Shown piece by piece: positions 909 to 24,000 of a stretch of 24,000 nt of DNA. Position 1 is the first letter of the stretch. The number at the start of each line of letters is the position of its first letter. Origin of the DNA: Acidobacteriota bacterium. Its GTDB lineage: Bacteria > Acidobacteriota > Terriglobia > Acidiferrales > UBA7541. The DNA is taken from NCBI GenBank assembly GCA_016201215.1, contig JACQDH010000002.1:3303-27302 (forward strand), given 5' to 3'. The notes under the pieces were generated by a model, which made no database searches, was not told the DNA's origin, and saw only the letters and a program-made list of their open reading frames with translations. Made by a program: the position numbers and the translations under genes.

Positions 909-951
909 GAGATTGCCGATCGCCATCCGGCGTGGCCCCGGAACGCGTGCC

Positions 952-1021: not shown

Positions 1022-1098
1022 TTCGCTCAGCTTGACACACGGAGTCGCAGCCCAAACTTTCCCGTGCGGGTCCACGCAGGAAGCCGCGGCGCGGAACG

Positions 1099-2205: not shown

Positions 2206-2247
2206 GATTCCTTTGCCAGAATCCTGGCCAGCTTCCGCGCCGTCGGT

Positions 2248-3225: not shown

Positions 3226-3312
3226 CGCTCGGCTCGCGCGTTGCGTGTCCGCGACTCTTCGCTGAGGACCCCTACCCCAAACGCCAGTCCTGGTGTAAAA
3301 GGTTTCTCTGCC

Positions 3313-3693: not shown

Positions 3694-3825
3694 CTAAGAA
3701 CCAAGAGATATGAATGCAGCGGCGCTCGTAGCCCGTGACAAGCGGAGTGAGGCAGGTCACCACGGAGACGAGTGACTCGCTATAGCACGTCGCCACAACG
3801 GCTTACCATCCTGCCGAGGCTGCGC

Positions 3826-3854
3826 TTGACGTTTCTGCGCCCTGCCTTCACTAT
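3826..3854 (+). promoter_or_regulatory. candidate sigma-70 promoter upstream of cobO
   Basis: TTGACG (3826-3831), a 17-nt spacer, then CACTAT (3849-3854), about 50 nt upstream of the ATG at 3904. Confidence 0.3.
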
Positions 3855-3903
3855 TTCCTCTGCTCTTTACCGGGCGCTGAAGGCTGCGGCCAAGCGCTCC
3901 TCC

Positions 3904-4440: not shown

Positions 4441-4448
4441 AAATTTGC

Positions 4449-4473
4449 GATCTCCTATCTGAGATCTGAGATC
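4449..4473 (+). promoter_or_regulatory. inverted plus tandem repeat immediately upstream of the accD start
   Basis: GATCTC (4449-4454) pairs with GAGATC (4461-4466). TGAGATC-like units repeat in tandem (CTGAGATCTGAGATC). The block ends 4 nt before the ATG at 4478. No obvious Shine-Dalgarno. Confidence 0.2.
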
Positions 4474-4477
4474 ACAC

Positions 4478-6457: not shown

Positions 6458-6521
6458 GCCCTCACCGACCTGACACGGCGCGCATCGGCACGGGTTGCTG
6501 CGCCCCAGAGCCGATGCTAGG

Positions 6522-7322: not shown

Positions 7323-7350
7323 CCGGTATCGAGACTCGGGTTCTCGTTGT

Positions 7351-7380
7351 TCCATTTTTCTTTTCCCTTTTCCTTTCTCC
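7351..7380 (+). other. polypyrimidine tract in the 5' region of the SDR gene
   Basis: tccatttttcttttcccttttcctttctcc; positions 7355-7380 are 26 consecutive pyrimidines. It is followed by GGGGGA and the ATG at 7390. Confidence 0.5.
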
Positions 7381-7389
7381 GGGGGACGC

Positions 7390-8154
7390 ATGATTTCGCT
7401 CGCGGGCAAGGCAGCACTCATCACGGGAGGCTCGCGCGGCATCGGCGCAGCAGTGGTGAAGCTGTTCGCGCAAGCTGGCGCCGACGTGGTGTTCAACTAC
7501 CACCGCAACCGCGAGGCCGCCCGCCAAGTTGAGCAGGAAGCGCGGAAGCACGGCACGCGCGTCGAGTCGCTCAAGGCCGATTTGGGCCGCATGGCCGACG
7601 CGCGCAAGCTGGTGAAGTACACGGCCGAGCGCCTGGGCCGGCTCGACATTCTGGTGGCCAACGCCGGCATCTGGAACGCGGAGGACGCCCCGATCGACAA
7701 GATGACGGAGCGCGAGTGGGATGAAATGGTGCGCGTGAATCTGAAGAGCGTCTATGGGGTCACGCACTTCGCCGCGGCGCACATGATCGCGCAGCGCTCC
7801 GGGCGCATCATCGCCATCAGCTCGACCGCGGGACAGCGCGGCGAGGCGTTCCACACGCACTACGCCGCCACCAAGGGCGCCATCATCAGCTTCGTCAAAG
7901 GGCTGAGCACCGAGCTGGCGCGGCACAACATCCTGGTCAATTGCGTCGCACCGGGCTGGGTGGATACGGAGATGTCCCGGCCGGTGCTCGCGACCAAGGC
8001 CGGATGGAAATTCGCCACCTCCGCAATTCCCCTGGGCCGCGCGGCCACCGCGGAAGAGATCGCCGGGCCGATCCTGTTTCTCGCCTCCGACCTTGCAACC
8101 TTTGTGACCGGTGAGATCCTCAATGTAAATGGAGGTGCGGTGCTGTGCGGCTGA
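7390..8154 (+). CDS. SDR-family oxidoreductase (3-oxoacyl-ACP reductase FabG-like)
   Basis: TGGSRGIG cofactor motif, NAG, the catalytic S...YAATK (YxxxK) and a C-terminal NVNGG. Confidence 0.85.
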   Translation: MISLAGKAALITGGSRGIGAAVVKLFAQAGADVVFNYHRNREAARQVEQEARKHGTRVESLKADLGRMADARKLVKYTAERLGRLDILVANAGIWNAEDAPIDKMTEREWDEMVRVNLKSVYGVTHFAAAHMIAQRSGRIIAISSTAGQRGEAFHTHYAATKGAIISFVKGLSTELARHNILVNCVAPGWVDTEMSRPVLATKAGWKFATSAIPLGRAATAEEIAGPILFLASDLATFVTGEILNVNGGAVLCG

Positions 8155-8975
8155 TGCGGCGAAGCGTTGTGGCAATCGTCCTGCTGGCAATGGGCGCGCT
8201 GGGCGTCGCGGCGCCGGTGCGCGCGCAGAACCCGGAGACGCTCCTCCCGGAGCAGAGCGCCGCGAAGGCCAAGGATCTCCTCCAGCAGGCCCTCGCCGCG
8301 CTGGGCGGCCCAGCCTATCTCGGCGTGCGCGACGCCGATTGCTCGGCGCGTCTTTCGCTGTTCGGTCATTCCGGCGACCTAACCGGCTACGACTTTATCC
8401 ACGATATCTGGAAGTTCCCGGACAAGAATCGCACCGAGTATTCCAAGAAGGGCAACGTCGTGGACATCTACAACGGCAACCAGGGCTGGACGCTGGACCG
8501 GGCCGGAGTGGCCGAAGCCTCGGCCGTGGCCGTGGAAGATTTTCAGGAGCAGGTGAAGAAGGACATGGACAACCTGCTGCGCTATCGGCTGAAGGAAGAG
8601 GGCATGATCTTCCGCTACGGCGGCAGCGACATCGTGGACCTCAAGCAGGTGGAATGGGTGGAGCTGGTGGACCGCGACCGGCGCACATTCCGCCTGGCGC
8701 TGGATGGTTCGACCCACCTGCCCGTCCGCTATGTCGTGCTTACGCGGAATCCCAGCACCCGCGAGCGCACCGAGGAGATCACCTACTTTTCCAACTATCA
8801 CGTCGAGAACGGCGTGCAGACGCCGTTCCAGGTCACCCGCGAACGCAACGGCCTGAAGATCTTTCAGGCGTTCTATTACGGCTGCAAGTACAACAGCGGC
8901 GTCAGCGACGACCTGTTCTCCCGCGCCGCGCTCGAAAAGCGCTGGGCGGAAACTCCTAAAAAGAAGAAAAAGTAG
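8145..8975 (+). CDS. secreted hypothetical protein with a lysine-rich C-terminus
   Basis: Signal peptide MRRSVVAIVLLAMGALGVAAPVRAQ. The start is GTG 8145 or ATG 8154; the ATG overlaps the upstream TGA by 1 nt (cTGATG). It ends ...ETPKKKKK. No family assigned. Confidence 0.6.
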   Translation: MRLMRRSVVAIVLLAMGALGVAAPVRAQNPETLLPEQSAAKAKDLLQQALAALGGPAYLGVRDADCSARLSLFGHSGDLTGYDFIHDIWKFPDKNRTEYSKKGNVVDIYNGNQGWTLDRAGVAEASAVAVEDFQEQVKKDMDNLLRYRLKEEGMIFRYGGSDIVDLKQVEWVELVDRDRRTFRLALDGSTHLPVRYVVLTRNPSTRERTEEITYFSNYHVENGVQTPFQVTRERNGLKIFQAFYYGCKYNSGVSDDLFSRAALEKRWAETPKKKKK

Positions 8976-9038
8976 CCGCGTCCCGTCGGCACGGGTTTCT
9001 GCTAGACTCCGCGCATCCTCCCGCGGAGGTTTCCTGAC

Positions 9039-10340
9039 GTGCTTCGCCGACGCGAATTCATCCGGCGCGCTGCGGTGGCCGCGGCGCTGCTCGGCCTGCC
9101 GCTGGCTCGGGCCGAGCAACTCTTCGCCCAGGACCCGCCCGCGCTGCCGCCGCGCGACCTCTACGGCACCGACCCGGACCGCTACTGGGCCGAGTTGCGC
9201 CGCCAGTGGCTGCTCGCCGCCGACCGCATCAACCTGAACTGCGGCTCGGTGGGCTGCACGCCGCTGCCGGTGCTGCGCGCGATGATTGACCACCTGCTCT
9301 CGGCCGAGGAATTCCGCGAGGCGCCCTACCCGTGGTTCGGCTACGAGGAGAATACGCGCCTGCGCGAGCTGCGCGACGCGCTGGCCGCGTTCCTGCACGT
9401 GAAGCGCGACGAGCTGGCCATCGTGCGCAACGCCACCGAAGCCAACAACGTGGTTTGCAACGGCCTGGACCTCAAGCCCGGTGACGAAGCCCTGCTCACC
9501 GACCAGGAGCATCCCGGCGGGCGCTGCTGCTGGGAGCAGAAGGCCGCGCGCTTCGGCGTGGAGTTGCGTTATGTCACGCTGCCCAAGCCTCCGGCCTCCA
9601 AGGAGCAGATCGTCGAACTGTTCGCACGCGCTATCACGCCGCGCACGCGCATCCTGGTCTTCAGCCACATCACGACGGTCACCGGCGTCATTCTTCCGGT
9701 GAAGGAAATCTGCGCGCTGGCGCGCTCGCGCGGCATCCTGACGCACGTGGACGGCGCGCACGCCATCGGGCAGATCCCACTCGACCTGTACGACCTGGGC
9801 TGCGACTTCTACGCCACCAGCCCGCACAAGTGGCTGATGTCGCCCAAGGGCACCGGCACGCTCTACGTGCGCGAAGAGTTGCTCGAGCGACTGTGGGTGA
9901 ATACGGTTACCACGGACTGGCGCAACTACGCGCTCAAGGCCTATCGCTTCTCGACCTTCGGCACGTCGAATCTTTCCGTGATGGTGGGCCTCAAGGCCGC
10001 GCTCGATTTCTTCCACACGATCGGCCCGGAGCGCATCTACGCGCGGCTGCACCAGCTTGCCACGCGGGTGCGTGACCGCGTCGCCGCACACGCCCAGGTG
10101 CAAGTCGTGAACGCCAGCAAGGACGAGTTTTTCGGCGGCCTGGTGAGCTTTGAGCCGGTGCCGCGCGTCGCACCCGGCGCAACGACCGGTGGGCTGCAGC
10201 GCGTGGCCGACGAATGCGCCGCACGCAACATCCGCATCGCCGGCGGCCCGGAGCGCATCCGCATCGCTACGCACATCTTCACCCAGCCGACCGATCTCAG
10301 CGCATTCTTCGACGCTCTCGATGCCGGCCTCCGCGCTTGA
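9039..10340 (+). CDS. class-V aminotransferase (cysteine desulfurase / isopenicillin-N epimerase-like, PLP-dependent) with a twin-arginine signal
   Basis: GTG start. N-terminus [25 protein letters not shown] looks like a Tat motif (RREFIR). It has HVDGAH and SPHKW (the PLP-binding lysine context). Confidence 0.8.
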
Positions 10341-10372
10341 TTCCGGTCAGTTGCCTGGCACGGAAGCATGCG

Positions 10373-10402
10373 TTGGTTCCGGCTCGGCGCTCGCGGTATA
10401 AT
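10373..10402 (+). promoter_or_regulatory. candidate sigma-70 promoter for hslV(U)
   Basis: A perfect TATAAT at 10397-10402, with TTGGTT at 10373-10378 (18-nt spacer). GAGGA lies about 12 nt upstream of the ATG at 10436. Confidence 0.4.
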
Positions 10403-10435
10403 ATGCGGATGCGACAGACGAGGAAAAGTTCGCAG

Positions 10436-10960
10436 ATGCGCGGCACAACGGTTTTGTGCGTGCGGCGGGACAACAAGGTGGTGATGGCGGGCGACGGCCA
10501 GGTGACCTTCGGCGAGAGCGTGATGAAGCACTCGGCGAAGAAGATCCGCCGACTGTTCGACGACAAGATCCTGGCAGGCTTCGCCGGTACGACCGCCGAT
10601 GCGCTTTCACTCTTCGGACGCTTCGAGGGCAAGCTGCAGGAGCATCACGGCAACCTGGCGCGCGCGGTGGTCGAGCTGGCCAAGGACTGGCGCACCGACC
10701 GCGCCCTGCGGCACCTGGATGCGCTGTTGGTGGTGGCCGACGCCAAGTCCACGTTCCTGGTTTCCGGGCGCGGCGACATCATCGAGCCCGACGACGGCAT
10801 CTGCGCCATCGGGTCGGGCGGGGCGTTTGCCCTGGCCGCGGCGCGGGCGCTGGCGAAGCACACCAAACTCGCCGCCAAGGAGATTGCGCAGGAGGCCATG
10901 CGCATCGCCAGCGAGATCTGCATCTTTACCAACGACAACTTCACCCTGGAAGAATTGTGA
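10436..10960 (+). CDS. hslV: ATP-dependent protease subunit HslV
   Basis: [26 protein letters not shown]...GFAGTTADA...GSGG aligns along its whole length with the HslV pattern, including the N-terminal catalytic Thr context. Confidence 0.9.
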
Positions 10961-10978
10961 GCGCGCAATGAGGGCACG

Positions 10979-12264
10979 ATGAGCGGCAAAGCGGAAAAAG
11001 ATGCGGTGATTTATCTCCCCGGCGAGCAGAGCGCGGCGCAGCCGGAGCCGCCGCCGTCGTTCGACGAGTTGACGCCGCGGGAGATCGTCATTGAGCTCGA
11101 CAAGTACATCGTCGGGCAGAACGCGGCGAAACGCGCCGTGGCCATTGCGCTGCGCAACCGCGTGCGACGGCAGAAGCTGACTCCCGAGCTGGCCGAGGAA
11201 GTCCTGCCCAAGAACATCCTGATGATCGGCCCCACCGGCGTGGCAAGACGGAGATCGCGCGGCGGCTGGCGCGCCTGGCGGGCTGCCCGTTTGTGAAGGT
11301 GGAGGCGTCGAAGTACACCGAGGTGGGCTACGTCGGCCGCGATGTCGAATCCATGGTGCGCGACCTGGTGGAGATGTCCATTGACATGATCCGCGAGGAA
11401 AAACTCGACGAGGTGGCCGAACGCGCCGAGCAGGCCGCCGAGGAGCGCGTGCTCGACCTGTTGCTGCCCGCCTCGCCGCCGCACCCCGCGGAGCTCTCCA
11501 ACCCCGCCATCGAAGCGCAGAACCGCGAGCAGGCCAGCCGCACGCGCGACAAGTTGCGCGCCCAGCTCCGCGAAGGCAAGCTCGACCAGCGCGTTGTCGA
11601 GGTGGAGGTGCGCGAGCGCTCGATGCCCGCGTTTGAAATCGTCAGCAGCCAGGGCGTCGAGGAGATGGACATCAACGTCAAGGACATGCTCTCGGGCTTT
11701 TTCGGCCAGCAGAAGAAGAAGCGCAAGATGACCGTGGCCGAGGCGTTCGATTACTTGATCCAGGAGGAAGAGAGCCGCCTGATCGACATGGACCAGGTGA
11801 CGCGGTCGGCGGTGGAGCGCGCCGAGCAGATGGGCATCATTTTCGTTGACGAGATCGACAAGATCGCCGGGCGGGAATCGGGCCACGGCCCGGACGTTTC
11901 GCGCGAGGGCGTGCAGCGCGACGAGATGACCTCGCTCGGCGAGGCCGATTTCGTGCGCATCCTTACCGAGCCGAAGAACGCGCTGATCAAGCAGTACACG
12001 GCGCTGCTCGAAACCGAAGGCGTGAAACTCAGCTTCAGCGAAGACGCCGTGGCCACACTGGCGCGCTTTGCCGCGCTGGTGAACGAGCAGACGGAAAACA
12101 TCGGCGCGCGCCGCCTGCACACCATCCTCGAAAAGGTCCTGGACGATATCTCGTTTGAGGCTCCCGAGCTGAAAAAGAAAACCGTCAAGATTGATGCCGC
12201 CTACGTCCACAAGCAGCTCGCTGACATCGTCAAGAACCAGGACCTGAGCCGGTACATCCTCTGA
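10979..12264 (+). pseudogene. hslU: hslU (AAA+ unfoldase) disrupted by a -1 frameshift in Walker A and by an in-frame internal deletion
   Basis: Frame 2 reads ...[31 protein letters not shown]...ILMIGPTGV, then goes out of frame at ggcgtggcaagacg (11237-11250). Frame 1 continues [37 protein letters not shown]. Later, DVSREGVQRD is followed directly by EMTSLGEADFVRILTEP, skipping the ~50-aa LLP...GRFPIRV block present in canonical HslU. Confidence 0.85.
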
Positions 12265-12281
12265 TCCCCACCACGCCGCAG

Positions 12282-13478
12282 ATGAAAACAAGAAGAGAGG
12301 ACTCCGCCGTGACGTTTCAATCCCGCGACGCTTGGGCCTCTCTTCTGGTTTTTCTCTTTGCACTGCTGTGCTTTAGCGCGCTGGCGGGTTGCGCCGCGCC
12401 GGGCGAGCCGGCCCCGAAGCGGCCGCTGGTGCCGGGAGCGATCAAGGACCTGGCCGTGCGCCAGGCGGGCGACGCCGTGGTGTTGACCTTCACCCTGCCG
12501 AAAAACTCCATCGAGGGCCAGCCGCTCGGCGAACCGCCCGCGGTGGAGATCTATCGCGGGGCGCTGCCCGCCGGAGCGGCGCAGGGCAAACTCTCCACGC
12601 GGCTGGTCTATGCGATTCCCGGGGCGCTGGTGGACACCTATCTCAGCGAGGGGCGTGTGAAGTTTTCCGACCCGCTGAGGCCCGAAGATCTGGCCGGGCA
12701 AGCAGGCGGGCAAATGGTCTATATGGTGCGGACGCGCGCGTCACGTAGGCGGGCCTCGGCAGACTCCAACGTCGCGGCCCTGCGGGTTTACCCCGCGCCC
12801 GAGCGCATTGGCGACGTCCGCGCCGCGGTCACCGAAACGACCGTCGAGCTCTCGTGGTCGCCACCGCAGCGCAACTCCACCGGCAGCGCGCTCGGCTCGC
12901 TGGCAGGCTACCGCGTCTATCGCGCCGAAGTCGAGCCTGGCGGGGATGCCGCCGCGGTGGATGATCCCTCGAAGGCCAAGCGGAAAACGCCGCTCGAATT
13001 GCTGGGGCCCACGCCCGCGGCGGCGTTCCGCGACACCCAGTTTGAATTCGGCCGCACGTATCTTTACACCGTGCGCAGCGTGGCGCAGTATGAGGCCGAT
13101 TCCGTCGAGTCGGCCGATTCGCGGCCGGTGGTGGTGACCCCGCGCGATGTTTTCCCGCCCGCGGCGCCGCAGGGGCTGGTGGTCGTCCTGGTGCCCGCCA
13201 CAGCCGGCGCAGAGGCGTACCTGGAACTTTCCTGGAGCATCAGTCCTGAAACTGACCTGGCCGGGTACCACGTCTATCGAAGCGAGCCGGAGGGCGCTGC
13301 AGCTTCGGGCCGCGGGGAGCGCGTGAACCGCGAATTGTTGCTCAGCCCAACGTTTCGTGATATGTGGGTCGAGCGCGACCGCCGCTATACCTACCGAGTC
13401 ACCGCGGTGGATCTTGCCGGCAACGAAAGCCCCGCGAGTGCCGCCGTCTTGGCGGAAGTCCCGCCGCGCGAGCCATAA
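12282..13478 (+). CDS. lipoprotein with fibronectin type III-like repeats
   Basis: Lipobox LAGC after a hydrophobic segment. Repeated FN3-like signatures: VELSWSPP, YLELSWSISPETDLAGYHVYRSE, YTYRVTAVDLAGNES. Confidence 0.65.
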   Translation: MKTRREDSAVTFQSRDAWASLLVFLFALLCFSALAGCAAPGEPAPKRPLVPGAIKDLAVRQAGDAVVLTFTLPKNSIEGQPLGEPPAVEIYRGALPAGAAQGKLSTRLVYAIPGALVDTYLSEGRVKFSDPLRPEDLAGQAGGQMVYMVRTRASRRRASADSNVAALRVYPAPERIGDVRAAVTETTVELSWSPPQRNSTGSALGSLAGYRVYRAEVEPGGDAAAVDDPSKAKRKTPLELLGPTPAAAFRDTQFEFGRTYLYTVRSVAQYEADSVESADSRPVVVTPRDVFPPAAPQGLVVVLVPATAGAEAYLELSWSISPETDLAGYHVYRSEPEGAAASGRGERVNRELLLSPTFRDMWVERDRRYTYRVTAVDLAGNESPASAAVLAEVPPREP

Positions 13479-13494
13479 GGAAAGGCCCTGAGAA

Positions 13495-13980
13495 ATGATT
13501 GCACGGTTGCCCCAGTCGCAGCTCCCGGGCTCACGGTGGCTCGCGTGGCTGCGCAACGCAACGCTGCGCGTGGGTTTGCTGACCGGCATCTATCTCTCCA
13601 TCGTCCTGGCCGCCTGGATGCTCATCGCCAACCGCGTCCCCTGGTCAGCCAAGTTTGCCCACGCCCGCAACCTCGGGGCGGCAGCAGTGATGGCCGTACT
13701 GATGCTGATTCCCGTTCTGCGGTTCTTGCGCTCGCCAGCGCGGCTGTTTGCTTCCGGCGTGGTGGGCTGGGCGGTGTTGTCTTGGACCTACGTGATGCTG
13801 GGGCTGTATTTCGAGCGGCTCTACAGCCGGAAGGGGCCTTTGCACGTGTTCATGCTTGGCGCCGTGGTCTATGGGTCCGCCGCCGTGGTTGCCTGGGTGG
13901 CTTCGATGGTGCTGGCCGCACGCCGCCATCACCATCATCACCACCAGAGTGTCGCCGTTTCACGCCGCCGGATGTACTGA
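13495..13980 (+). CDS. integral membrane protein with a C-terminal His6 run
   Basis: About four hydrophobic segments, ending ...LAARRHHHHHHQSVAVSRRRMY. AAGGAAAGG lies upstream of the ATG at 13495. Confidence 0.55.
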   Translation: MIARLPQSQLPGSRWLAWLRNATLRVGLLTGIYLSIVLAAWMLIANRVPWSAKFAHARNLGAAAVMAVLMLIPVLRFLRSPARLFASGVVGWAVLSWTYVMLGLYFERLYSRKGPLHVFMLGAVVYGSAAVVAWVASMVLAARRHHHHHHQSVAVSRRRMY

Positions 13981-13987
13981 CTTCCCG

Positions 13988-14800
13988 ATGAAACTCTGTC
14001 GGTTCCAGCCGCTGCATTTCAGCGCCGAGCAGGTCGGACGCTCGGGCGGCGAAGCGTATCCCGAGCCGCGCGCGGGCGTGATCACCGGCGAAACGGTGCG
14101 GGAGATTTCGGGCGACATCTTCCGCCAGTGGCGCGCCACCGACCGCGCCTGGCCGCTCGAGGAAGTGAAGCTGCTGCCGCCGGTAGTGCCCAGCAAGCTT
14201 GTTTGCCTGGGGCGCAACTACCGCGCGCACGCCGCCGAGCTGGGCCACGAGGTTCCCAAGGAGCCGCTGATTTTCCTCAAGCCGCCTTCGGCGATTATCG
14301 GCCCCGAGGAACCCATCGTGCTCCCGCCCATCTCCCAGCGCGTGGACTACGAGGGCGAACTGGCCGCGGTCATCGGCCGCGTCTGCTCGCAACTCGCGCC
14401 GGACGCCGACGTGCGGCCGTACATCCTGGGCTGGACGTGCCTCAACGACGTGACGGCGCGCGACCTGCAAAGGGCCGACGTGCAGTTCACCCGCGCGAAG
14501 GGTTTTGACACCTTCTGCCCGCTCGGGCCGGTGATCGAAACCGAGCTCGACCTGGCCACGACCACGATCGAAACCTACGTCAACGGCGAGCGGCGCCAGT
14601 CTGCTCCGGCCACGCTGATGATCTTTCCGGTTGATGTTATAATTCGCTGGGTTTCGCGCATGATGACGCTGGTGCCCGGCGACATCATCGCTACCGGCAC
14701 GCCAGCGGGCGTCGGGCCGCTGAAGGCTGGAGACGTGGTCGAAGTGGTGGTCGGCGGCGTGGGCACGCTCCGTAACCCGGTGGTCACACCGGCGACGTAA
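13988..14800 (+). CDS. fumarylacetoacetate hydrolase (FAH) family protein
   Basis: KLVCLGRNYRAHAAE, IFLKPPSA, DYEGELAAVIG, NDVTARD, KGFDTFCPLGP and PGDIIATGTP are canonical FAH-family motifs. I place the start at ATG 13988 rather than the track start at 13856. Confidence 0.85.
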   Translation: MKLCRFQPLHFSAEQVGRSGGEAYPEPRAGVITGETVREISGDIFRQWRATDRAWPLEEVKLLPPVVPSKLVCLGRNYRAHAAELGHEVPKEPLIFLKPPSAIIGPEEPIVLPPISQRVDYEGELAAVIGRVCSQLAPDADVRPYILGWTCLNDVTARDLQRADVQFTRAKGFDTFCPLGPVIETELDLATTTIETYVNGERRQSAPATLMIFPVDVIIRWVSRMMTLVPGDIIATGTPAGVGPLKAGDVVEVVVGGVGTLRNPVVTPAT

Positions 14801-14848
14801 ATCCTCTCCGCAGAATGCCGTATCCTGTAGGCTATAAGGAGATCGCCC

Positions 14849-15544
14849 ATGAAATTTTTTCTGGATACCGCGAACCGGGACGAAATCCGCCAGGCGGTCG
14901 CGCTCGGCGTGCTCGACGGCATCACCACGAATCCCACGCTGGTGGCCAAGGAGAAGCGCCCCTTCCGCGAGCACATCCTGGAGATCTGCGAGATTGTCAA
15001 GCCCGGCGTGGTGAACGCGGAGGTGGTTTCCACCGATACCGAGGGGATGCTCCGCGAAGCACACGAGCTGGCCGGCTGGCACCCCAACATCGTGGTGAAG
15101 GTGCCCATGACGCTGCCTGGAGTGCAGGCGCTCCATGTGCTGGCGCGCGAGGGCGTGCGCGTCAACGTCACCCTGGTCTTCTCCGCAGCCCAGGCGCTGA
15201 TTGCGGCCAAGGCCGGCGCGTATTTCGTCAGCCCGTTCCTCGGGCGGCTGGACGACGTGGCGCAGAGTGGCCTGGGGCTGTTGCGCGAGATCGTGGAGGT
15301 CTACCGCGCCTATAACTTTCCAACGCAGATCCTGGCCGCGAGCCTGCGCCATCCGATCCACGTCGTGGAGGCGGCGAAGATGGGCGCGCACATCGCCACC
15401 ATGCCGTTCAAGGTTTTCGAGCAACTCTTCAAGCACCCGTTGACCGACCGGGGGCTGGAAGGATTCCTGAAAGATTGGGAGAAGGCGCGCGAGGTGCTGG
15501 GTGAGATTGTGGAACCCGCCGGCGCGCGCAAAGGCGGGCGGTGA
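14849..15544 (+). CDS. tal: transaldolase / fructose-6-phosphate aldolase (short TalB-3B/Fsa type)
   Basis: [27 protein letters not shown] (Schiff-base Lys context) and [17 protein letters not shown] lies 7 nt upstream of the ATG. Confidence 0.9.
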
Positions 15545-15996
15545 GATACCTTGGAATCGATTGGCGGATTCTGCTGGGAACCGCGGTGGCACTCCTGTTC
15601 GGCGGCGGCGCGTTCTATTGGTTGCGTCGGCGGCCGGCAGACCCGGAGGAAATCGAACGCCGGCGCCGCTCACACCTGAACCAGGTGGGCCGCATCGTCG
15701 AAGGCCACGTCGTCGAGCTGCTGGAAACTTCGCCCGAGCCGCAGAGCGGTGGCGGCTTTTTCCGAAGGCGCGGCCACGCCGCCCCCGGCGGCACGCCCGA
15801 TGGCGCGCGCAAGCTGGTCTGCTACAGCTACTCGATCTCCGGCGTCACCTACGAAACCGCCCAGGACGTCACCGGGCTCGAGGAGCGCCTGCACCTGGAG
15901 CGCCTGGCCGCCGGCCAGCCAGCCAGCGTCAAGTACGATCCCTCGAACCCCAGCGACTCCATCCTGGTGGCCGACGACTGGTCCGGCCTGCACTGA
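15541..15996 (+). CDS. membrane-anchored hypothetical protein (DUF3592-like)
   Basis: The GTG start overlaps the tal stop (GTGA). One N-terminal TM segment is followed by a beta-rich domain ([11 protein letters not shown]...VKYDPSNP). Confidence 0.5.
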
Positions 15997-16095
15997 AGCG
16001 GCGCCCGCCACTCCCCCAGCAGCCCGGTGCGAATCAGTAGGTGATTCCCGTTGCGCCCGCTCTGAGCTATCCTTGCCTTTGTTTCGGACACACCA

Positions 16096-16356
16096 ATGAA
16101 GCAGCGCATCACCTACACGCACCTGCTCGCGGCCGTGCTGACCACGCTGCTGGTGGTGGCCATGACCCTGGCGGCGGTGTTCCTGCTGGTCAAGGTCACT
16201 TTTACCATCGCCGAGATGAGCAACCCGATGTTCCGCGCCGCAGCGGTGATGGCCGAATTGGTCCTCGGTGCAGTTCTCCTGGTGGGCACCGTATATATGG
16301 CCACGCATCTGGCCGTGCGCATCTTCGGCGGTGGCACGCCGCGCGCCGGTGACTGA
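16096..16356 (+). CDS. small hypothetical membrane protein
   Basis: 86 aa with two clear hydrophobic segments. No family recognised. Confidence 0.4.
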   Translation: MKQRITYTHLLAAVLTTLLVVAMTLAAVFLLVKVTFTIAEMSNPMFRAAAVMAELVLGAVLLVGTVYMATHLAVRIFGGGTPRAGD

Positions 16357-16470
16357 GCCTCTTCCGGCGTGCCATTGCGGGGCGCGGCAGGTCATGGGAG
16401 ACTTGCCCTGCCGGCCCGGCGCCGGGGCGAAAGGAGCTTGCCGGAGGGTTTTGCCTGCAAGCAGAATCTT

Positions 16471-18066
<1,596 letters not shown>

Positions 18067-18091
18067 CGCGTCGGAGCGAGGGCGGCCGGCT

Positions 18092-18172
18092 CGAGCGAAG
18101 CTCCCGCGCAGCGGGAACACCAACCCCAAGAAGAAGCACGGCAACATCCCGCTGTCGCAAATGGTCTGTTGA
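18092..18172 (+). pseudogene. relic second copy of the carboxyltransferase 3' terminus (RAKL...[12 protein letters not shown]), out of frame with the intact gene
   Basis: Positions 18119-18154 encode [12 protein letters not shown], identical to 18028-18063. There are 7 nucleotide differences, all at third codon positions. RAKL at 18092-18103 likewise matches 17980-17991 with 2 synonymous changes. Confidence 0.6.
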
Positions 18173-18197
18173 CTAAAGTCATCACCGGCATTATCCT
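18169..18197 (+). promoter_or_regulatory. candidate promoter for the methyltransferase gene (possibly a leaderless transcript)
   Basis: TTGACT (18169-18174), a 17-nt spacer, then TATCCT (18192-18197). The first ATG (18205) lies 8 nt after the -10 and has no Shine-Dalgarno. Confidence 0.3.
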
Positions 18198-18204
18198 TGG
18201 GTCC

Positions 18205-19110
18205 ATGTTGGCGTGTAAGCCTTACTACGAGACTCATCTCGGAAGAGCTTACCTGGGTGATTGCCTAAGAATCATGCGCCAATTGCCCGACGATTCGGTC
18301 AACTTAGTGATGACTTCGCCGCCTTTCGGCCTTGCTTTTAAGAAGGAGTACGGCAACCCGGATTCAGACGACTACGTAGAGTGGTTCCTGCCGCATGCGC
18401 GGGAGATGAAACGGCTCATTAAGAAGGACGGGAGCATCGTCATAGACATAGGCGGTGCCTGGAAGAAAGGAAATCCGACTCGGTCTCTTTACCAGTTCAA
18501 GTTGCTGCTAACTCTCTGTGAAGAGGTTGGTCTTCACCTTGCCCAGGACTTTTATTGGTTCCGACCGGCCGCCCTACCCGCGCCTGCCGAGTGGGTCGCC
18601 GTCAGGCGGATTCGAGTCAAGGACTCAGTGAACTGCATTTGGTGGTTGAGCAAGACCGAATGGCCGAAAGCCAGCAACCGAAATGTACTGCAGCCGTACA
18701 GCAAAGATATGATCCGCCTCCTCCAGAAAGGGTACAGGTCAAAACTTCGTCCGTCCGGCCATTTCGTGACGCCCAAGTTCATGAGTGACCGCGGTGGTGC
18801 GATTCCACCGAACCTTCTACAAGTGGGCGGCAATGAATCCAACAGCCACTATCTCAAAGCTTGTGGAGAAGCAGGACTTAGACCTCACCCGGCTCGCTTC
18901 CCCAGAGAGATACCAGAGTTTTTCATTAAGCTGACCACCGAGGAAACGGATTGGGTCCTGGACCCGTTCGCAGGTTCAAACGTGACTGGCGAGGCCGCTG
19001 AGTTTATGAACAGGCGTTGGATCGCTATAGAAATCAGGAAGGACTATTTGGAAGGATCACTTTTCCGCTTCGAGGAGCCAGAGCTCTTTCGCAGCGCATC
19101 TGCCCGTTAA
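18205..19110 (+). CDS. Type II DNA methyltransferase, beta-class amino-MTase (N4-cytosine or N6-adenine; SPPF favours m4C)
   Basis: Motif IV is TSPPFGL (SPPF at 18316-18327), near the N-terminus. AdoMet motif I is [10 protein letters not shown] (18961-18990), near the C-terminus. This motif order defines the beta class. The region is low-GC. The track start TTG 18169 coincides with the putative -35, so I prefer ATG 18205. Confidence 0.85.
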
Positions 19111-19331
19111 GTCTTCCGCCGTTCCGCCAAAGCGATCATGGTGCTGAGCGGTACATCGAGTGCTTCGGCTAACCTCTTTGCGGTCTCCAGAGTCGGATGA
19201 CGCTTCCCGCGTTCGATCATGCTAACGAAGGTGCGGTCCAAATCGGCGAGCTCGGCGAGCTTTTCTTGAGAAAGTCCTCGTCGAGTGCGGACTTCTCGCA
19301 CAACTTCTCCGAATCTGGCTGAAAAACTCAC
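19107..19331 (-). CDS. controller (C) protein-like XRE-family HTH regulator of the R-M system
   Basis: 74 aa with a GTG start. [41 protein letters not shown] matches the hallmark SQE.LA....DRT(Y/F)(I/V)S.IERG.R.P(S/T) pattern of R-M C proteins. It sits between the R and M genes. Confidence 0.75.
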
Positions 19332-19337
19332 CAGTCG

Positions 19338-19877
19338 CTACACCAACCGCAGCGCCGAAATCAAATCCTCGCGCCAGTAGCCACGATAGGCCGTGGATTC
19401 TCCCAAGGAGACTCTATTGTCGATGCGGCCGCGATAGGCCTTGTGGCGAGCAAGCTTTGCGGTAGCTATGAATCGAAATTCCCACCGCTTGGTTTGGTTG
19501 AAGAGGCACGCCGCAAGGACTTGGAATTCTGAAGGCTTATAAAACCTTCCTTGTGGTCCAACCGTTTTCGCGTATCGGGTCCTCATGAAATCGACCGTAA
19601 TCTCTCCGCGTCTCAATGTTTTCTGGACGTTCTTACATTCGACAAGATATTTGCGTCCTTCAAAGAGCACCCAGAAGTCCGATTTCCCTTCCTCGACCGG
19701 CGAACCGAAGTCAGTGATCTGGCGCATGTCACGCATTGTAGTCAGATACTGTCGAAGATGCTCTTGCGCTATTCCTCCCTTAACCGCTACAAGCAAGCGA
19801 CTATTTCTATGGATTACGTCCAGGATGGTAGATGCCGGCAGGGCAAACATCTTCTCGAGCGGGTGCTCTTGACTCAT
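19338..19877 (-). CDS. Type II restriction endonuclease candidate (PD-(D/E)XK fold)
   Basis: The D-x12-E-x-K motif is SDFWVLFEGRKYLVECK (D codon 19677-19679, E 19638-19640, K 19632-19634). It is adjacent to the MTase and C gene and is low-GC. An alternative ATG at 19934 would place the C-boxes inside the ORF. No specific REase family recognised. Confidence 0.6.
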   Translation of the reverse strand: MSQEHPLEKMFALPASTILDVIHRNSRLLVAVKGGIAQEHLRQYLTTMRDMRQITDFGSPVEEGKSDFWVLFEGRKYLVECKNVQKTLRRGEITVDFMRTRYAKTVGPQGRFYKPSEFQVLAACLFNQTKRWEFRFIATAKLARHKAYRGRIDNRVSLGESTAYRGYWREDLISALRLV

Positions 19878-19907
19878 AGGCGTGATGGGACAACATGCCC
19901 CCAGTGT

Positions 19908-19932
19908 GACTAATAGTCTACGGACTATAGTC
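19908..19932 (-). promoter_or_regulatory. tandem C-box-like operator (two GACT..AGTC palindromes)
   Basis: The minus strand reads GACTATAGTC-CGTA-GACTATTAGTC (19932 down to 19908). This is two palindromes separated by 4 nt, directly upstream of the endonuclease ORF. A third degenerate copy, GACTCATAGGCGTG, lies at 19871-19884 on the plus strand and overlaps ATG 19877. Confidence 0.6.
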
Positions 19933-20012
19933 ATATATCACTTCAGGGGCGCGGGGAGATTCCGGGGATTTGTGAAATTCTGGTCCGCAGTCGAATGACT
20001 TCTGCCCGGGCG

Positions 20013-20021
20013 TGCTAGAAT
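20013..20021 (+). promoter_or_regulatory. candidate extended -10 promoter for accC at the island's right edge
   Basis: TGCTAGAAT (TGn plus TAGAAT) at 20013-20021, 26 nt upstream of the ATG at 20047. No convincing -35. Confidence 0.25.
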
Positions 20022-20046
20022 TCCCCTGCGCCCTTCCGCTGGAACC

Positions 20047-21591
20047 ATGTTCAAGAAGATTCTGATTGCGAATCGCGGCGAAATTGCCATCCGCATCCTG
20101 CGCGCCTGCCGCGAACTGAGCGTGGGCGCGGTCGCGGTGTTCAGCGAAGCGGACCGCGCTTCGCTGCACGTGCGCCTGGCCGACGAGGCCTATCCGATCG
20201 GGCCCTCGGCTTCCCGCGAAAGCTACCTGCGTATTGACAAGCTGATGGACGTCGCGCGGCGGGCGGGCTGCGACGCCCTGCACCCCGGCTACGGTTTTCT
20301 AGCCGAAAACCACGATCTGCCTCGCGCCTGCGCGGAGGCCGGGGTCACGTTCATCGGGCCGACCGCGGCGGCGATGGAGCAGTTGGGCTCGAAGACCGCG
20401 GCGCGGCAACTGGCGCGGCGCGCGGGCGTGCCCATGGTGCCCGGCACAGTGGATCCCATCGAGCAGCTCGAGGACGCGCAGCGACTCGCACGTGAGACTG
20501 GTTATCCGGTGCTGCTCAAGGCCGTGGCCGGCGGCGGGGGCAAGGGCATGCGGCTGGTCACAAGCGATGCGGAGCTGCCCGCGGCGTGGCGCGACGCCAG
20601 CTCCGAGGCGCTCAACGCCTTCGGCGATGCCCGGCTTTATCTCGAGAAGTTCCTCGAGCGCCCGCGGCACATCGAAATCCAGATCCTCGGCGACCTGCAC
20701 GGCCACCTCGTATATCTTGGCGAGCGTGAATGTTCCGTCCAGCGGCGCCACCAGAAGGTGATTGAGGAGGCGCCCTCCCCGGTGGTGGATGCCAAGCTGC
20801 GCCGCGCGATGGGCGAGGCGGCGGTGGCGCTGGCGCGCGCAGCGGGCTACACCAACGCCGGCACGATCGAATTCCTGGTGGACGCGTCGCGCAATTTTTA
20901 TTTTCTCGAGGTCAACACGCGCCTGCAGGTGGAGCATCCGGTCACGGAAGCGGTCACCGGCTTCGACCTAGTCAAGCTGCAAATCCGCGTTGCCGCGCGC
21001 GAGCCGCTGCCCTTCACGCAGGAGGATGTCGCCCTGCGCGGGCACGCCATGGAGTGCCGCATCTACGCCGAAGACCCGGACAACAACTTTTTTCCGTCGC
21101 CCGGAAAAATCCTCGCGCGGCGCGTGCCCTTCGGCCCGGGGATTCGCCTGGACGACGGCGTATATCCCGGCTGGACCGTGCCGACCGACTACGACCCGCT
21201 GTTGGGCAAACTGATTGCCTGGGGAAACGACCGCGCCGAAACCATCGCGCGCATGAAGCGGGCGCTCGAGGAATACTACATCACCGGCATCAAGACCAAC
21301 GTCGGGCTGTTCCGGAGCATCCTGGCCGACCCGGGGTTCCTGCGCGGCGAAATCCACACGCGCTGGCTTGACGACCGGTTGCAGACGTCTGCGAAACCCG
21401 CCCCGGCCGCAGCGAAGCCAGTCGACGACAGGCAGCCGCGGATGGAAGATGTGGCCCTGCTGGCCGCGGTGCTCTGGCACCTGGAAAACAACAGCGCCCC
21501 GGCGAAGGCGGCCAATCAGCAGGCGAATGCGGAATCGCGCTGGAAGCTCGAAGGCCGCCGCGCGGTGCTCGACAGGAGTCCGGGAAGGTGA
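20047..21591 (+). CDS. accC: biotin carboxylase subunit of acetyl/propionyl-CoA carboxylase (with a C-terminal extension)
   Basis: MFKKILIANRGEIAIRI, HPGYGFLAEN, GGGGKGMR, EKF...PRHIEIQ, ERECSVQRRHQK, EVNTRLQVEHPVTE and RIYAEDP are full-length canonical ATP-grasp biotin carboxylase motifs. Confidence 0.92.
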   Translation: MFKKILIANRGEIAIRILRACRELSVGAVAVFSEADRASLHVRLADEAYPIGPSASRESYLRIDKLMDVARRAGCDALHPGYGFLAENHDLPRACAEAGVTFIGPTAAAMEQLGSKTAARQLARRAGVPMVPGTVDPIEQLEDAQRLARETGYPVLLKAVAGGGGKGMRLVTSDAELPAAWRDASSEALNAFGDARLYLEKFLERPRHIEIQILGDLHGHLVYLGERECSVQRRHQKVIEEAPSPVVDAKLRRAMGEAAVALARAAGYTNAGTIEFLVDASRNFYFLEVNTRLQVEHPVTEAVTGFDLVKLQIRVAAREPLPFTQEDVALRGHAMECRIYAEDPDNNFFPSPGKILARRVPFGPGIRLDDGVYPGWTVPTDYDPLLGKLIAWGNDRAETIARMKRALEEYYITGIKTNVGLFRSILADPGFLRGEIHTRWLDDRLQTSAKPAPAAAKPVDDRQPRMEDVALLAAVLWHLENNSAPAKAANQQANAESRWKLEGRRAVLDRSPGR

Positions 21592-21640
21592 ACTGCGGCT
21601 CGGCGTTCGGCTTTCGATCCTTGGAGTGAGGAGAGCTCGG

Positions 21641-22078
21641 ATGAAATGGATTACCCGGCAACACGCCAAAGTGGATCGCGTGGCCTGTCCCTGGCTGATC
21701 CGGCGCTTCATTGATGCGGATGCCGAGTTCCTGTTTGCACCGGAGAACGAAGTGCTGAAGATCGCCGAGCGCGAAGAAGCCGTGCCGTTCGATATGCCCC
21801 GTAACCCGGAGTTGAAGTTCACCCACCACAGCGGCCTGTGCACGTTTGAAGTGCTGATCCGCGAGTTCAACCTGAAAGAGCCGGGCCTGACGCGCCTGGC
21901 GAAAATCGTACACGCGGCGGACCTCAGCGGCGAGGAGCACAAAGCTCCCGAGGCCGCGGGGCTCAAGGCCGTCGCCGAGGGTTTCCATGCGCTCAATCTG
22001 ACCGACAAGGAACGCTTGGCCTACGGTTATCCGATCTACGAGGCACTCTACGCCTGGTGCCGGAAGCAAGGAAAATGA
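21641..22078 (+). CDS. ChrB C-terminal domain-like protein (chromate-resistance 'Chrome_Resist' family)
   Basis: MKWITRQHAKVDRVACPWLIRRFIDADAEFLF matches my recollection of the conserved N-terminal signature of this family. GGAGTGAGGAG lies upstream of ATG 21641. Its stop overlaps the BCCP start (ATGA). Confidence 0.7.
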   Translation: MKWITRQHAKVDRVACPWLIRRFIDADAEFLFAPENEVLKIAEREEAVPFDMPRNPELKFTHHSGLCTFEVLIREFNLKEPGLTRLAKIVHAADLSGEEHKAPEAAGLKAVAEGFHALNLTDKERLAYGYPIYEALYAWCRKQGK

Positions 22079-22572
22079 TTCTCGACGTGCGCATCGGCGG
22101 ACGCACGCGCCGCGTGGAAGTGGAGCGGCAAGGCAGCCGGCTGCGAGTTCAGCTCGATGGCCGCGCGTTCGAAGCCGATGCGGTCGAGGTGGCCCCGGGC
22201 ACCTATTCGATCCTGCTGGACGCTCGCGCGCTGGAGGTGCGCGTGCAGCCCGCCGGCGACGCCGTGCATGTGCACGCGGGCGGGGAAGAGTTTTTGGCCG
22301 AGGTGCTCGACCCGCGCGCGTGGCGCGGCAAGCGCGGCGGGGTGCTCAAGCTCGAAGGCCGCCAGCAGATCATCGCGCCGATGCCCGGCAAGGTGGTGCG
22401 GCTGCTGGTCAAGACGGGCGACACGGTGGAGGCCGGCCAGGGCTTGCTGGTCGTCGAAGCGATGAAGATGCAGAACGAAATCCGCGCGCCCAAGACCGGC
22501 AAGGTCGAGCGGCTGGCGGTCAGCGAAGGCCAAGCGGTCAATGCCGGCGAAGTCATCGCCGTAGTCGCCTGA
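22075..22572 (+). CDS. biotin carboxyl carrier protein (biotinyl/lipoyl domain)
   Basis: The C-terminal biotinylation motif is EAMKMQNEI, within GQGLLVVEAMKMQNEIRAPKTGKV. ATG 22075 overlaps the upstream stop. Confidence 0.85.
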   Translation: MILDVRIGGRTRRVEVERQGSRLRVQLDGRAFEADAVEVAPGTYSILLDARALEVRVQPAGDAVHVHAGGEEFLAEVLDPRAWRGKRGGVLKLEGRQQIIAPMPGKVVRLLVKTGDTVEAGQGLLVVEAMKMQNEIRAPKTGKVERLAVSEGQAVNAGEVIAVVA

Positions 22573-22581
22573 TACGCCCTT

Positions 22582-22610
22582 CCTCTGTAGCCCGCCTTTT
22601 CAGAGGCGGG
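22582..22610 (+). terminator. stem-loop after the BCCP gene
   Basis: CCCGCC (22591-22596) pairs with GGCGGG (22605-22610). An alternative stem is CCTCTG/CAGAGG. It starts 10 nt after the stop. The T-tract is weak (ATT). Confidence 0.35.
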
Positions 22611-22640
22611 ATTCCCCGGCATGTGAGTGGAGGAAAGAGC

Positions 22641-22660
22641 CTCGCGTCTGAAGACGCGAG
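22641..22660. terminator. stem-loop between convergent genes (BCCP and PPIase)
   Basis: A perfect 8-bp stem, CTCGCGTC-TGAA-GACGCGAG. An A-rich stretch on the plus side could act as the U-tract for the minus-strand transcript. Confidence 0.4.
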
Positions 22661-22700
22661 CTGCACAATCTCGAATCTCTGAATGGTGAGGTTGGGGATG

Positions 22701-23771
22701 CTACTTCTTGGCCGGGGCCGCGGCTTTGGCGGCGCCGGGCAGCTTGCCGGCCGATTCGACCACCTGACGGGCCAGATAGTTTGCCACCTTGGCATCATCG
22801 CGCGCGGTGGCCAGGTAAGCGGCGCGGAGCAACTGCTCCTTGCGGTTGCGCAGGGCGTCGCGGATGGACTGCTGCACCTGTGGGTCGGAAAGGTCGCGCT
22901 GGCCCGGGGCCTCGCGGGAGATGAGCTTAAGGATGCGGTAGTTGTCGCGCAGCGCGATCACCCCGCTGAGCTGGCCGGGCTTGAGCGCCAGCACCGTCTT
23001 CTTCAGCGCCGGGTCCGACTGGGAGAGCGCGGATTCAGGGATGTAGCCCAGGTCGCCGCCGGTCGCGGCGGTGGTGGGATCTTCCGAGTAGTCCATGGCG
23101 AGCTGGGAGAAGTCGGCACCACCGTTGAGCCGTTCGAGCAGCGCGGCACACTTGCGGCGGGCTTCAACGTCGGTGGTGGCGTCGTCGTTCTTGCGGTTGC
23201 GCACCTGCGGGTCCCTGCGCGGCGTGACCACCATCTGCGCGATGCGGTACTGTGGCTCGGCCACGTTGAACTGTGCGCGATTCTGGTTGAAGAAGTCGGT
23301 GACGTCCTGGTCGGTGATGGAGATCTTGGCCACCACTTCGCGGTTGATCAGCTTCTTGACGGAGAGTTGCCGGCGAAGATCGCGCTTCAGATCGTCCACG
23401 GTGACGCCGCGGTCCTTCATCTGCCGCTGGAATTCGTCTTCGGTGTAGGGGCTCTTGAACTCGGTGAATTTGTCCTCGACCTCGCCGTCGCTGGCCTCTA
23501 GGCCCGCGGCCTTGGCGCGCTCGAGCAAGATTTCGTTGCTGATTAGCTCGTCGAGGATGTTCAGCTTGAGCGAGAGGGCCTCTTCCTGCGAAGGCTCCTG
23601 ACCCTGGGGGGTTACGCGGCTGCGGTAGTACTTTTCGACCTCGTCGCGCTTGATCTCCTTGCCGTTGACCGTGGCCCACACGTCGGGCGCCGGTGGCGCC
23701 TGCTTCTTGCAGGCCGGCGCGCAGACCAGCGCCGCCAGAATCCCCAGGGCTGCGACCAGGCGTTTCAGCAC
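22701..23771 (-). CDS. SurA/PrsA-like peptidyl-prolyl cis-trans isomerase lipoprotein (parvulin domain)
   Basis: The GTG start is preceded by AAGGAG. Signal/lipobox: LAALVCAPAC. It has a SurA-N-like helical region and a parvulin core (GGDLGYI...LKPGQLSGVI...YRILKL). Confidence 0.8.
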   Translation of the reverse strand: MLKRLVAALGILAALVCAPACKKQAPPAPDVWATVNGKEIKRDEVEKYYRSRVTPQGQEPSQEEALSLKLNILDELISNEILLERAKAAGLEASDGEVEDKFTEFKSPYTEDEFQRQMKDRGVTVDDLKRDLRRQLSVKKLINREVVAKISITDQDVTDFFNQNRAQFNVAEPQYRIAQMVVTPRRDPQVRNRKNDDATTDVEARRKCAALLERLNGGADFSQLAMDYSEDPTTAATGGDLGYIPESALSQSDPALKKTVLALKPGQLSGVIALRDNYRILKLISREAPGQRDLSDPQVQQSIRDALRNRKEQLLRAAYLATARDDAKVANYLARQVVESAGKLPGAAKAAAPAKK

Positions 23772-23808
23772 ACAGGCTCCTTTGTTGTCCGATGCGGGAA
23801 ACGCCGGC

Positions 23809-24000
23809 TTAGGCGGCCTTCTTCACCCGGCCGGAGCGAATGCAGGCGGTGCAGACGCGCACGTGCTTGCGCACGCCGTTGACCATCGCCCGGACGCGGC
23901 GCAGGTTTGCGTTCCAGCGGCGCCGGCGCACATTGTGGGCATGGCTGATGATGTTGCCGTAGCTCGGACCCTTGCCGCAAATCTCGCACTTCTGGGCCAT
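23809..24000 (-). CDS. rpmB: 50S ribosomal protein L28
   Basis: MAQKCEICGKGPSYGNIISHAHNVRRRRWNANLRRVRA...VRVCTACIRSG is the canonical L28 pattern. The ATG sits exactly at the window end (23998-24000, complement). Confidence 0.9.
   Translation of the reverse strand: MAQKCEICGKGPSYGNIISHAHNVRRRRWNANLRRVRAMVNGVRKHVRVCTACIRSGRVKKAA

Follow-up and report, generated by a model that had tools for sequence, protein, structure and literature searches.

A probable Type II restriction-modification island of an Acidobacteriota bacterium with a predicted controller-protein operator before the endonuclease gene

Gene content of the island

The subject of this analysis is a C-box-like double palindrome and the genes around it in a 24,000-nt stretch of Acidobacteriota DNA (assembly GCA_016201215.1, contig JACQDH010000002.1, positions 3,303 to 27,302 of the forward strand), called the window throughout. 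Three genes are concerned: M, encoding a DNA methyltransferase (methylase), on the plus strand, and R and C, encoding a putative restriction endonuclease and a small helix-turn-helix (HTH) protein of the controller (C) type, on the minus strand, with M converging on R-C. Together with the boxes they occupy a low-GC island (~53% GC across ~18090-20040 vs ~66% in the flanks) between two co-oriented plus-strand carboxylase genes, one carboxyltransferase-like and one biotin-carboxylase-like (16369-18066 and 20047-21591). M points in the same direction as these carboxylase genes and R-C in the opposite one. We consider it likely that the island is a horizontally acquired Type II restriction-modification (R-M) island under a C protein, a judgement made jointly with that on the Esp1396I/AhdI-like circuit described below.

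An earlier, sequence-only reading of the window had described R (19877..19338) and C (19331..19107) as minus-strand neighbours separated by a 6-nt gap, with the operator before R and C downstream. The genes lie as it described, and the same order recurs in 28 further loci. In the typical layout the box stands directly before C, and C upstream of R; in the window and its 28 relatives R lies between box and C, the box stands upstream of an operon that contains C, and R and C are co-oriented. The features of this operon, read in the direction of its transcription, are as follows.

19923..19932, minus strand: OL, the left, promoter-distal operator GACTATAGTC, a perfect 10-bp palindrome with GAC and GTC 4 bp apart around TATA
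19919..19922, minus strand: inter-operator spacer CGTA (CGTG in many relatives), its central GT conserved
19904..19918, minus strand: OR, the right, promoter-proximal operator GACTATTAGTC with the conserved flank ACAC, GAC and GTC 5 bp apart
19915..19920, minus strand: predicted -35 hexamer TAGACT of the R-C operon, in position and composition like the mapped AhdI -35 TGGACT (PMC2275141)
19892..19897, minus strand: hexamer CATGTT, predicted as a weak -10 and separated from the -35 by 17 bp
19338..19877, minus strand: R, a putative restriction endonuclease of 179 aa, modelled with a PD-(D/E)xK fold (D67...E80-x-K82) and encoded first in the operon
19107..19331, minus strand: C, second gene of the operon, a 74-aa protein (HTH_3) assigned by homology as controller protein, its GTG start 6 nt after the R stop

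The double operator and its conservation

The minus strand at 19940..19904 reads TGATATATGACTATAGTCCGTAGACTATTAGTCACAC, exactly as the sequence-only reading had quoted it, and within it GACTATAGTC-CGTA-GACTATTAGTC occupies 19932..19908. The pattern GACT-N(2-3)-AGTC-N4-GACT-N(2-3)-AGTC occurs once in the 24 kb (19908-19932) and in 0 of 100 dinucleotide-preserving shuffles, and the single box GACT-N(2-3)-AGTC occurs three times in the window vs 0.34 expected. The position most conserved among PvuII-type operators is the central GT, and a CGTG spacer occurs together with the DR(T/S)Y recognition helix (PMC2175313); the double box of the window has the form GACT-N2-AGTC-CGTA-GACT-N3-AGTC, likewise with a central GT. 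In Esp1396I, GAC and GTC are 4 bp apart in the methylase operator OM and 5 bp apart in OL and OR (PMC3488213). The 2-nt centre of OL in the window gives the GAC-N4-GTC spacing of Esp1396I OM, and the spacing within OR is that of both OL and OR in Esp1396I.

To place these sites in context, 54 related loci were gathered from scans of genome and metagenome contigs and their layouts sorted by tblastn with the three window proteins. The layout of the window, R and C in one direction with M converging on them, is shared by 28 of these loci, with R identities of 46-92%, in Acidobacteria, Terriglobia, Rugosimonospora, Rubrobacter and other actinobacteria (Actinomycetota). Twelve loci are more distant, at R identities of 33-43%, and show the canonical order with C, R and M colinear, and in the remaining 14 of the 54 no C gene was detected.

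OL is present in all 29 R-C loci, as GACCATAGTC in three of them, with a column identity of 90-100%; its distance to the R start is 43-90 nt across these loci, in most of them 53-56 nt. Alignment of 24 non-redundant regions upstream of R gave one conserved block, (T)GACTATAGTCCGT(A/G)GAC-N5-GTCAC followed at a fixed distance by xAxxxT, with column identities of 0.8-1.0 vs 0.3-0.45 outside, and across the loci with the window's layout this is the only conserved non-coding block upstream of R. Its spacer, CCGT(A/G), was found in 25 of 25 aligned sequences (GT in all), and the GAC..N5..GTCAC of OR is kept in most R-C loci. The strict box pattern was found in none of the R-M loci of the family that lack a C gene, and the exact operator gave 0 matches in viral contigs. 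The assignment of the palindromes to the AhdI/Esp1396I/PvuII type of C-box operator, made by the sequence-only reading, is supported. A third, degenerate box placed by the same reading at 19871-19884, over the R start codon, does exist in the sequence but is not conserved in relatives; its GAGTC occurs only in the window and in one metagenome contig (L049), with GAGCC, GAGCG or GGCTG elsewhere.

In the C-R-M loci (L008, L010, L011, L014, L016-L018, L020-L022, L025 and L029) a C-box of the form ACT(C/T)ATAGTC-TCTA-GACTnAnAG stands in front of C, ~40-60 nt upstream of it and near locus position 2720-2760; its inter-operator spacer is TCTA, not the (T/C)GT(A/G) with central GT of PvuII-type operators. 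Among the loci in which no C gene was detected, one (L004, 3001-4474) has convergent R and M genes, and seven have the order R, M (L009, L012, L019, L023, L024, L026 and L030); none of these eight has a C-box of the strict pattern. The R-M family therefore exists in C-controlled and C-free forms.

The predicted R-C promoter

T(A/G)GACT is kept in most aligned loci and, beyond a conserved spacer of 16-17 bp, most of them have an xAxxxT hexamer at a fixed distance (CATGTT, AATGTT, CATCCT, TATCAT, TACGCT, TAATAT or TACTAT). This geometry equals that of the mapped AhdI C/R promoter (PMC2275141). There, the spacer end and the first half of OR together make up the -35 TGGACT, a weak -10 lies 18 bp further on, and the transcript is leaderless. 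The sequence-only reading had chosen other hexamers, TTAGTC as -35 and TCCCAT as -10, with a leaderless mRNA starting at ATG 19877. We rejected this candidate: its two hexamers, above all the -10 position, are not conserved in the alignment, and the AhdI-like pair TAGACT-17-CATGTT is conserved instead. From the conserved pair, transcription is predicted to start at ~19886-19883, giving a leader of ~6-9 nt that lacks a Shine-Dalgarno sequence. A consensus sigma-70 scan did not report the CATGTT promoter, which is too weak for it, as expected of an activator-dependent promoter. With respect to the predicted promoter, OL is centred at ~-42.5 and is presumably the activating site, and OR, centred at ~-28 and overlapping both the -35 and the promoter spacer, is presumably the repressing one.

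The C protein

C matches PF01381 at 1.6e-18 and the PADLOC model Control_protein at 1e-16, and its top PDB matches are C.BclI (2.5e-14) and C.AhdI (4.9e-12), followed by C.Esp1396I. In the last of these, bases are contacted by R35, T36 and R46 (PMC3488213) and the sigma factor by E25 (PMC2691842). In the HMMER alignment the corresponding residues of C are R33, T34, R44 and E23, all kept, and its recognition helix reads DRTF, as in C.Esp1396I. C thus has the marks of the C.PvuII-like group, being a small HTH_3 homologue (about 8-9 kDa class) with the DNA-reading and sigma-contact residues, and judged by its sequence it is a true controller protein. As such, it would bind the box specifically, activating at low and repressing at high concentration. 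The best NCBIfam matches of C, all sub-threshold, are antitoxin-type HTH families. An NCBI entry from a metagenome-assembled genome of Acidobacteria matches C at 100% identity and is annotated only as a helix-turn-helix regulator.

Three C homologues that are 66-67% identical occur in unrelated contexts, and each has the same TAGACTATAGTCCGTAGACTnnnAGTCAC directly before its own gene. One of them (L060) adjoins a C5 methylase operon, and the other two (L061, L062) precede an unknown 507-aa gene. The operator therefore appears to travel with this clade of C proteins, whichever gene follows.

The putative endonuclease R

R has no sequence match in Pfam, NCBIfam, PADLOC or PDB. Its AlphaFold model (predicted local distance difference test score, pLDDT, 90.5) has as its best fold match the homing endonuclease I-Ssp6803I (E 9e-6), followed by Hjc resolvases and EcoRV, and the D...E-x-K motif (D67, E80, K82) is invariant among 45 R homologues. 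Of the 54 related loci, 53 have R adjoining an M.PvuII-like methylase gene, and in 29 loci the C gene is linked to both the Type II methylase gene and R, whose role as a nuclease is predicted from its sequence and model. Since most of the 45 homologues begin at the position of ATG 19877, we place the R start there and not at 19934.

The R family is annotated 'hypothetical protein' wherever it is found and is invisible to Pfam, NCBIfam and PADLOC, which amounts to an annotation gap. A tblastn search against plasmids gave two distant matches for R and five for C, each carrying a hypothetical or HTH annotation; gene order could not be surveyed from so few. The distant R-family members (L055, 2501-2947; L056, 1250-1768) adjoin methylase genes on Methanothrix harundinacea and Rathayibacter plasmids. 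On the metagenome contig L049, the R gene (922-1459) spans 538 nt and matches in two overlapping frames, indicating a frameshift. C and M on that contig (89% and 91% identical, respectively) and the three operators are intact, as if the copy were decaying and had lost its nuclease first.

The methylase and its operator

On the other strand, the island holds M and a set of sites in front of it.

18167..18184, no strand assigned: OM, a single symmetric operator TGTTGACTAAAGTCATCA of the form TG-N2-GAC-N4-GTC-N2-CA, overlapping the -35 of the methylase promoter
18169..18197, plus strand: predicted methylase promoter TTGACT-17 bp-TATCCT, both hexamers conserved
18205..19110, plus strand: M, a 301-aa N4-cytosine methyltransferase (PF01555), matching M.PvuII (1boo) over its full length at E 1.7e-103 and PADLOC MTase_II at 1.7e-115

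The third single box of the window, GACTAAAGTC at 18171-18180, lies before the methylase gene and was absent from the sequence-only reading. Upstream of M, TGTTGACTnnAGTCATCA is kept in 15 of 19 non-redundant loci as part of the string TGTTGACTnnAGTCATCA-N7-ATTAT(C/G)CT, the flanks not being kept, and TTGACT-17-TATCCT is the only plus-strand sigma-70-like site in the scan of 17900-20150. In Esp1396I, OM combines symmetric TG/CA and GAC/GTC elements (PMC3488213), and C.Esp1396I represses the convergent M gene through it (PMC2691842). The window has the same combination of a single symmetric operator on the M promoter and a convergent M gene and, by analogy, OM is presumably the site where C would repress M.

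The M start codon (ATG 18205) follows the -10 by only 7 nt (7-9 nt in relatives), so that the M mRNA is probably leaderless; no Shine-Dalgarno sequence is seen at 18192-18207. The leaderless look at this locus is thus that of the methylase mRNA rather than of the C mRNA. At its other end, the M stop codon overlaps that of C tail to tail (TTAA, 19107-19110), as in most related loci, an overlap that leaves no space for a terminator between the two converging units.

The M.PvuII target CAGCTG is absent from the window (1-24000; 9.4 +/- 3.0 expected from shuffles) and, taken separately, from the host flanks, 1-18090 and 20041-24000, where Markov models of orders 1-3 predict 9-16 copies. No other of the 64 six-base palindromes is as depleted, and CAGCT and AGCTG occur 30 and 43 times, respectively. 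Together with the local presence of a close M.PvuII homologue, this absence suggests that restriction at CAGCTG has acted on the lineage in the past. With regard to PvuII specificity, M matches M.PvuII and R has no match to R.PvuII; the absence of CAGCTG is consistent with that specificity and no proof of it.

At the border of the island upstream of M, the 3' end of the upstream carboxylase gene is present twice, as a 45-nt direct repeat (18023-18067 and 18114-18158) whose copies are 91 nt apart and 80% identical. The first copy has lower-GC codons and the stop codon, and the second is GC-rich and has lost the stop; in two relatives (L001, L033) the methylase promoter directly adjoins a repeat copy that ends with a stop. 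The repeat looks like a rearrangement scar. Given that M and the carboxylase genes are co-oriented, plus-strand read-through from the host would be antisense to C and R, the relevance of which is a matter of speculation. No known RNA family matched 17800-20300 at E <=1.

A proposed circuit and its alternatives

In 22 of 22 non-redundant loci the stop of R and the start of C either overlap, by GTGA, ATGA or 8 nt, or are no more than 6 nt apart, a junction so consistently tight that R and C are probably co-transcribed and translationally coupled. Taking this with the evidence above, the best reading of the island, and in our view a likely one, is an Esp1396I/AhdI-type C-controlled R-M switch in which R has come to lie between the promoter/operator and C. 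What we observed are conserved sites, a conserved order of genes, R and C tightly joined, a C protein homologous to solved controllers, and an operator that recurs with its C clade; from these features we infer binding, the sign of regulation, where transcription starts, and that R and C are co-transcribed and coupled. In a newly entered cell, transcription would begin at the strong methylase promoter (TTGACT-17-TATCCT), and the intrinsically weak R-C promoter TAGACT-17-CATGTT would yield a trickle of bicistronic R-C mRNA from which C would be translated in a manner coupled to R. As C accumulated, a dimer on the palindrome OL (~-42.5) would activate the promoter, probably via contact with sigma-70 region 4, and C on OM over the methylase -35 would turn M down. 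At higher levels of C, a second dimer binding cooperatively to OR (~-28) would cap R-C expression.

Several points weigh against this reading. Activation, as opposed to pure repression, is argued by analogy from homology and from the position of the sites. The centre of OL is 2 nt long vs 3 nt in the classical GACT/AGTC formula, a spacing that equals that of Esp1396I OM. The predicted -10 is poor (3/6) and the start site is a predicted one; moreover, the host is an acidobacterium, whose promoter rules may well differ from those of E. coli. There may also be a non-conserved internal promoter for C. Finally, in an actinobacterial subclade (L005-L007, L053 and L054) OL is kept as GAC(T/C)ATAGTCCGTAG, the right half differs (TAGCTnnnnnnGTGAC), the methylase promoter shows no clear GACT-NN-AGTC, and R is preceded by a leader of ~85-90 nt; with a degenerate OR and no clear OM there, the full circuit is not universal.

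The sequence-only reading had also held that the R-first order changes the establishment delay. We found nothing to back this. Canonical systems likewise put R on one transcript with C, and their delay is explained by the weakness of an activator-dependent promoter, by C dimerisation and by cooperative binding (PMC2275141), so that order alone does not obviously change it. We regard R-first as a permutation of the usual operon, differing in that the output of C would depend on translation of R and that the C gene abuts M. A bolder proposal, that the R-first order is a distinct timing design and R an unrecognised family of CAGCTG-specific endonucleases, seems to us doubtful as a whole. Such a design might have three features. 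The synthesis of C may be gated by translation of R through the coupled or overlapping stop and start codons; early strong M transcription, with no terminator between C and the convergent M, may run antisense through C and R and hold the activator down; and repression of the M promoter by C may relieve this interference, making a two-promoter toggle. If the proposal were true, current annotation tools would be missing an R family, and such islands would appear in annotations as an orphan methylase with an HTH gene beside it.

In the toxin-first higBA and mqsRA operons, the gene for the toxin comes before that for a small HTH regulator, whose binding sites are palindromes in the operon promoter, and these regulators are antitoxins and pure repressors. 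By the same token, the HTH protein of the window could be a pure autorepressor of the R-C operon and of M that activates nothing. We judge this improbable. It would fit a toxic gene standing first and an HTH gene second with palindromes over the promoter, OR and OM both overlapping -35 hexamers, and the sub-threshold antitoxin-type matches of C in NCBIfam; however, the nearest solved relatives of C are activator-repressor C proteins and its sigma-contact glutamate is kept, OL sits at a class-II activator position before a weak promoter in the geometry of the C-activated AhdI promoter, and a constitutive R promoter would kill a newly entered cell. By analogy, the island would also differ from those operons in that protection comes from a separate methylase and that the regulator is of the activator-repressor C family.

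Less probable again is that C is made mainly from a promoter of its own inside R, in which case the box would control R and not C, and no autoregulatory loop would run through it. Csp231I shows that separate promoters are possible within C/R pairs (PMC4824078), and a weak terminator-like hairpin (19349..19332) is found at the R-C junction. The hairpin was set aside as chance, since the junction varies among loci in sequence and layout and terminator-like matches are not enriched (5 vs 2.5 +/- 1.7). A C promoter or operator inside R was likewise rejected: within R there was no window of suppressed synonymous change, the scan found no sigma-70-like site on the minus strand, and no further box was found. 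The tight R-C junction in all 22 non-redundant loci also speaks against it, as do the C relatives that keep the operator before their own genes, which makes autoregulation the ancestral use of the box.

That the palindromes are a coding part of a 198-aa R starting at ATG 19934, or that they are mere chance, is scarcely credible: the in-frame open reading frame is open from 19934 in the window and two database proteins are called with an N-terminal 'MTIVRGLIVT' extension, but the homologue starts given above point to 19877, only 4 of 22 non-redundant loci have an in-frame reading frame open across the box (with differing frames), so that the box is not coding, and DNA-level conservation ends sharply at the box edges, with the double box absent from every shuffle.

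Comparison with known systems

Controller-protein circuits are the textbook solution for delaying a lethal nuclease after gene transfer, and we compared the island with several that have been described. It is most like Esp1396I in layout. In both, the methylase gene converges on a C/R operon, a double operator lies at the C/R promoter and a single symmetric operator over the methylase promoter, the symmetric site has GAC and GTC 4 bp apart around a TATA-like core (in the window TATA in OL and TAAA in OM) and the asymmetric site has them 5 bp apart, the spacer is CGT(G/A), and the C protein has the helix DRTF with R35, T36, R46 and E25 conserved. The differences are that the order in the window is R then C, not C then R; that its perfect symmetric site serves as OL as well as OM; that Esp1396I has a putative bidirectional terminator (PMC2691842) where the window has overlapping stop codons with no space for one; that the leader is 27 nt with a Shine-Dalgarno sequence in Esp1396I, whereas one of ~6-9 nt without it is predicted here; and that R of the window lacks detectable sequence similarity to any solved chain, with M belonging to the M.PvuII family.

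The promoter is closest to that of AhdI. In both, the -35 is formed from the spacer end and the first half of OR (TGGACT in AhdI, TAGACT or TGGACT here), the promoter spacer is 17-18 bp, the -10 is weak and the leader very short or absent; in AhdI, OL activates and OR represses (PMC2275141). AhdI differs in having the C gene first, a strictly leaderless mRNA, and a methylase promoter that is under the control of methylation and not of C.

With PvuII the island shares its methylase, M being a full-length close homologue of M.PvuII (E 1.7e-103), as well as control by a C protein and a GACT/AGTC double box with conserved central GT. R, on the other hand, has no detectable similarity to R.PvuII or any solved chain, its best fold match being I-Ssp6803I, and in PvuII the M gene diverges from C-R, the spacer is TGTA and the helix HRTY. 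Kpn2I (PMC6237814) and Csp231I (PMC4824078) are documented departures from the standard C-R operon, from which the island departs too. Csp231I, however, keeps C first and adds R promoters, and neither system puts R between the operator and C.

The R-first order is at odds with what the literature leads one to expect. C is said to precede R 'typically' (PMC6237814) and to lie upstream of it 'in the great majority' of systems (PMC3850674), and recent modelling and a review of 2025 are confined to the C-R promoter or to the exceptions Kpn2I and Csp231I; in the characterised or modelled cases that we found, C is first or separately transcribed. A systematic survey of 2009 sought operators only upstream of C genes, finding them for about 70% of C proteins (PMC2632904), and would therefore have missed an R-first layout. 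We found no R-then-C operon with a C-box before R in the literature, though the layout may already be catalogued in REBASE, which was outside our search. R-first appears here as a solid and conserved variant of a known circuit. The same operator and C clade are found before C alone and before R-C, and the R-M family occurs in C-R-M, R-C/M and C-less forms; these natural layouts allow a test of the part that gene order and coupling play in establishment.

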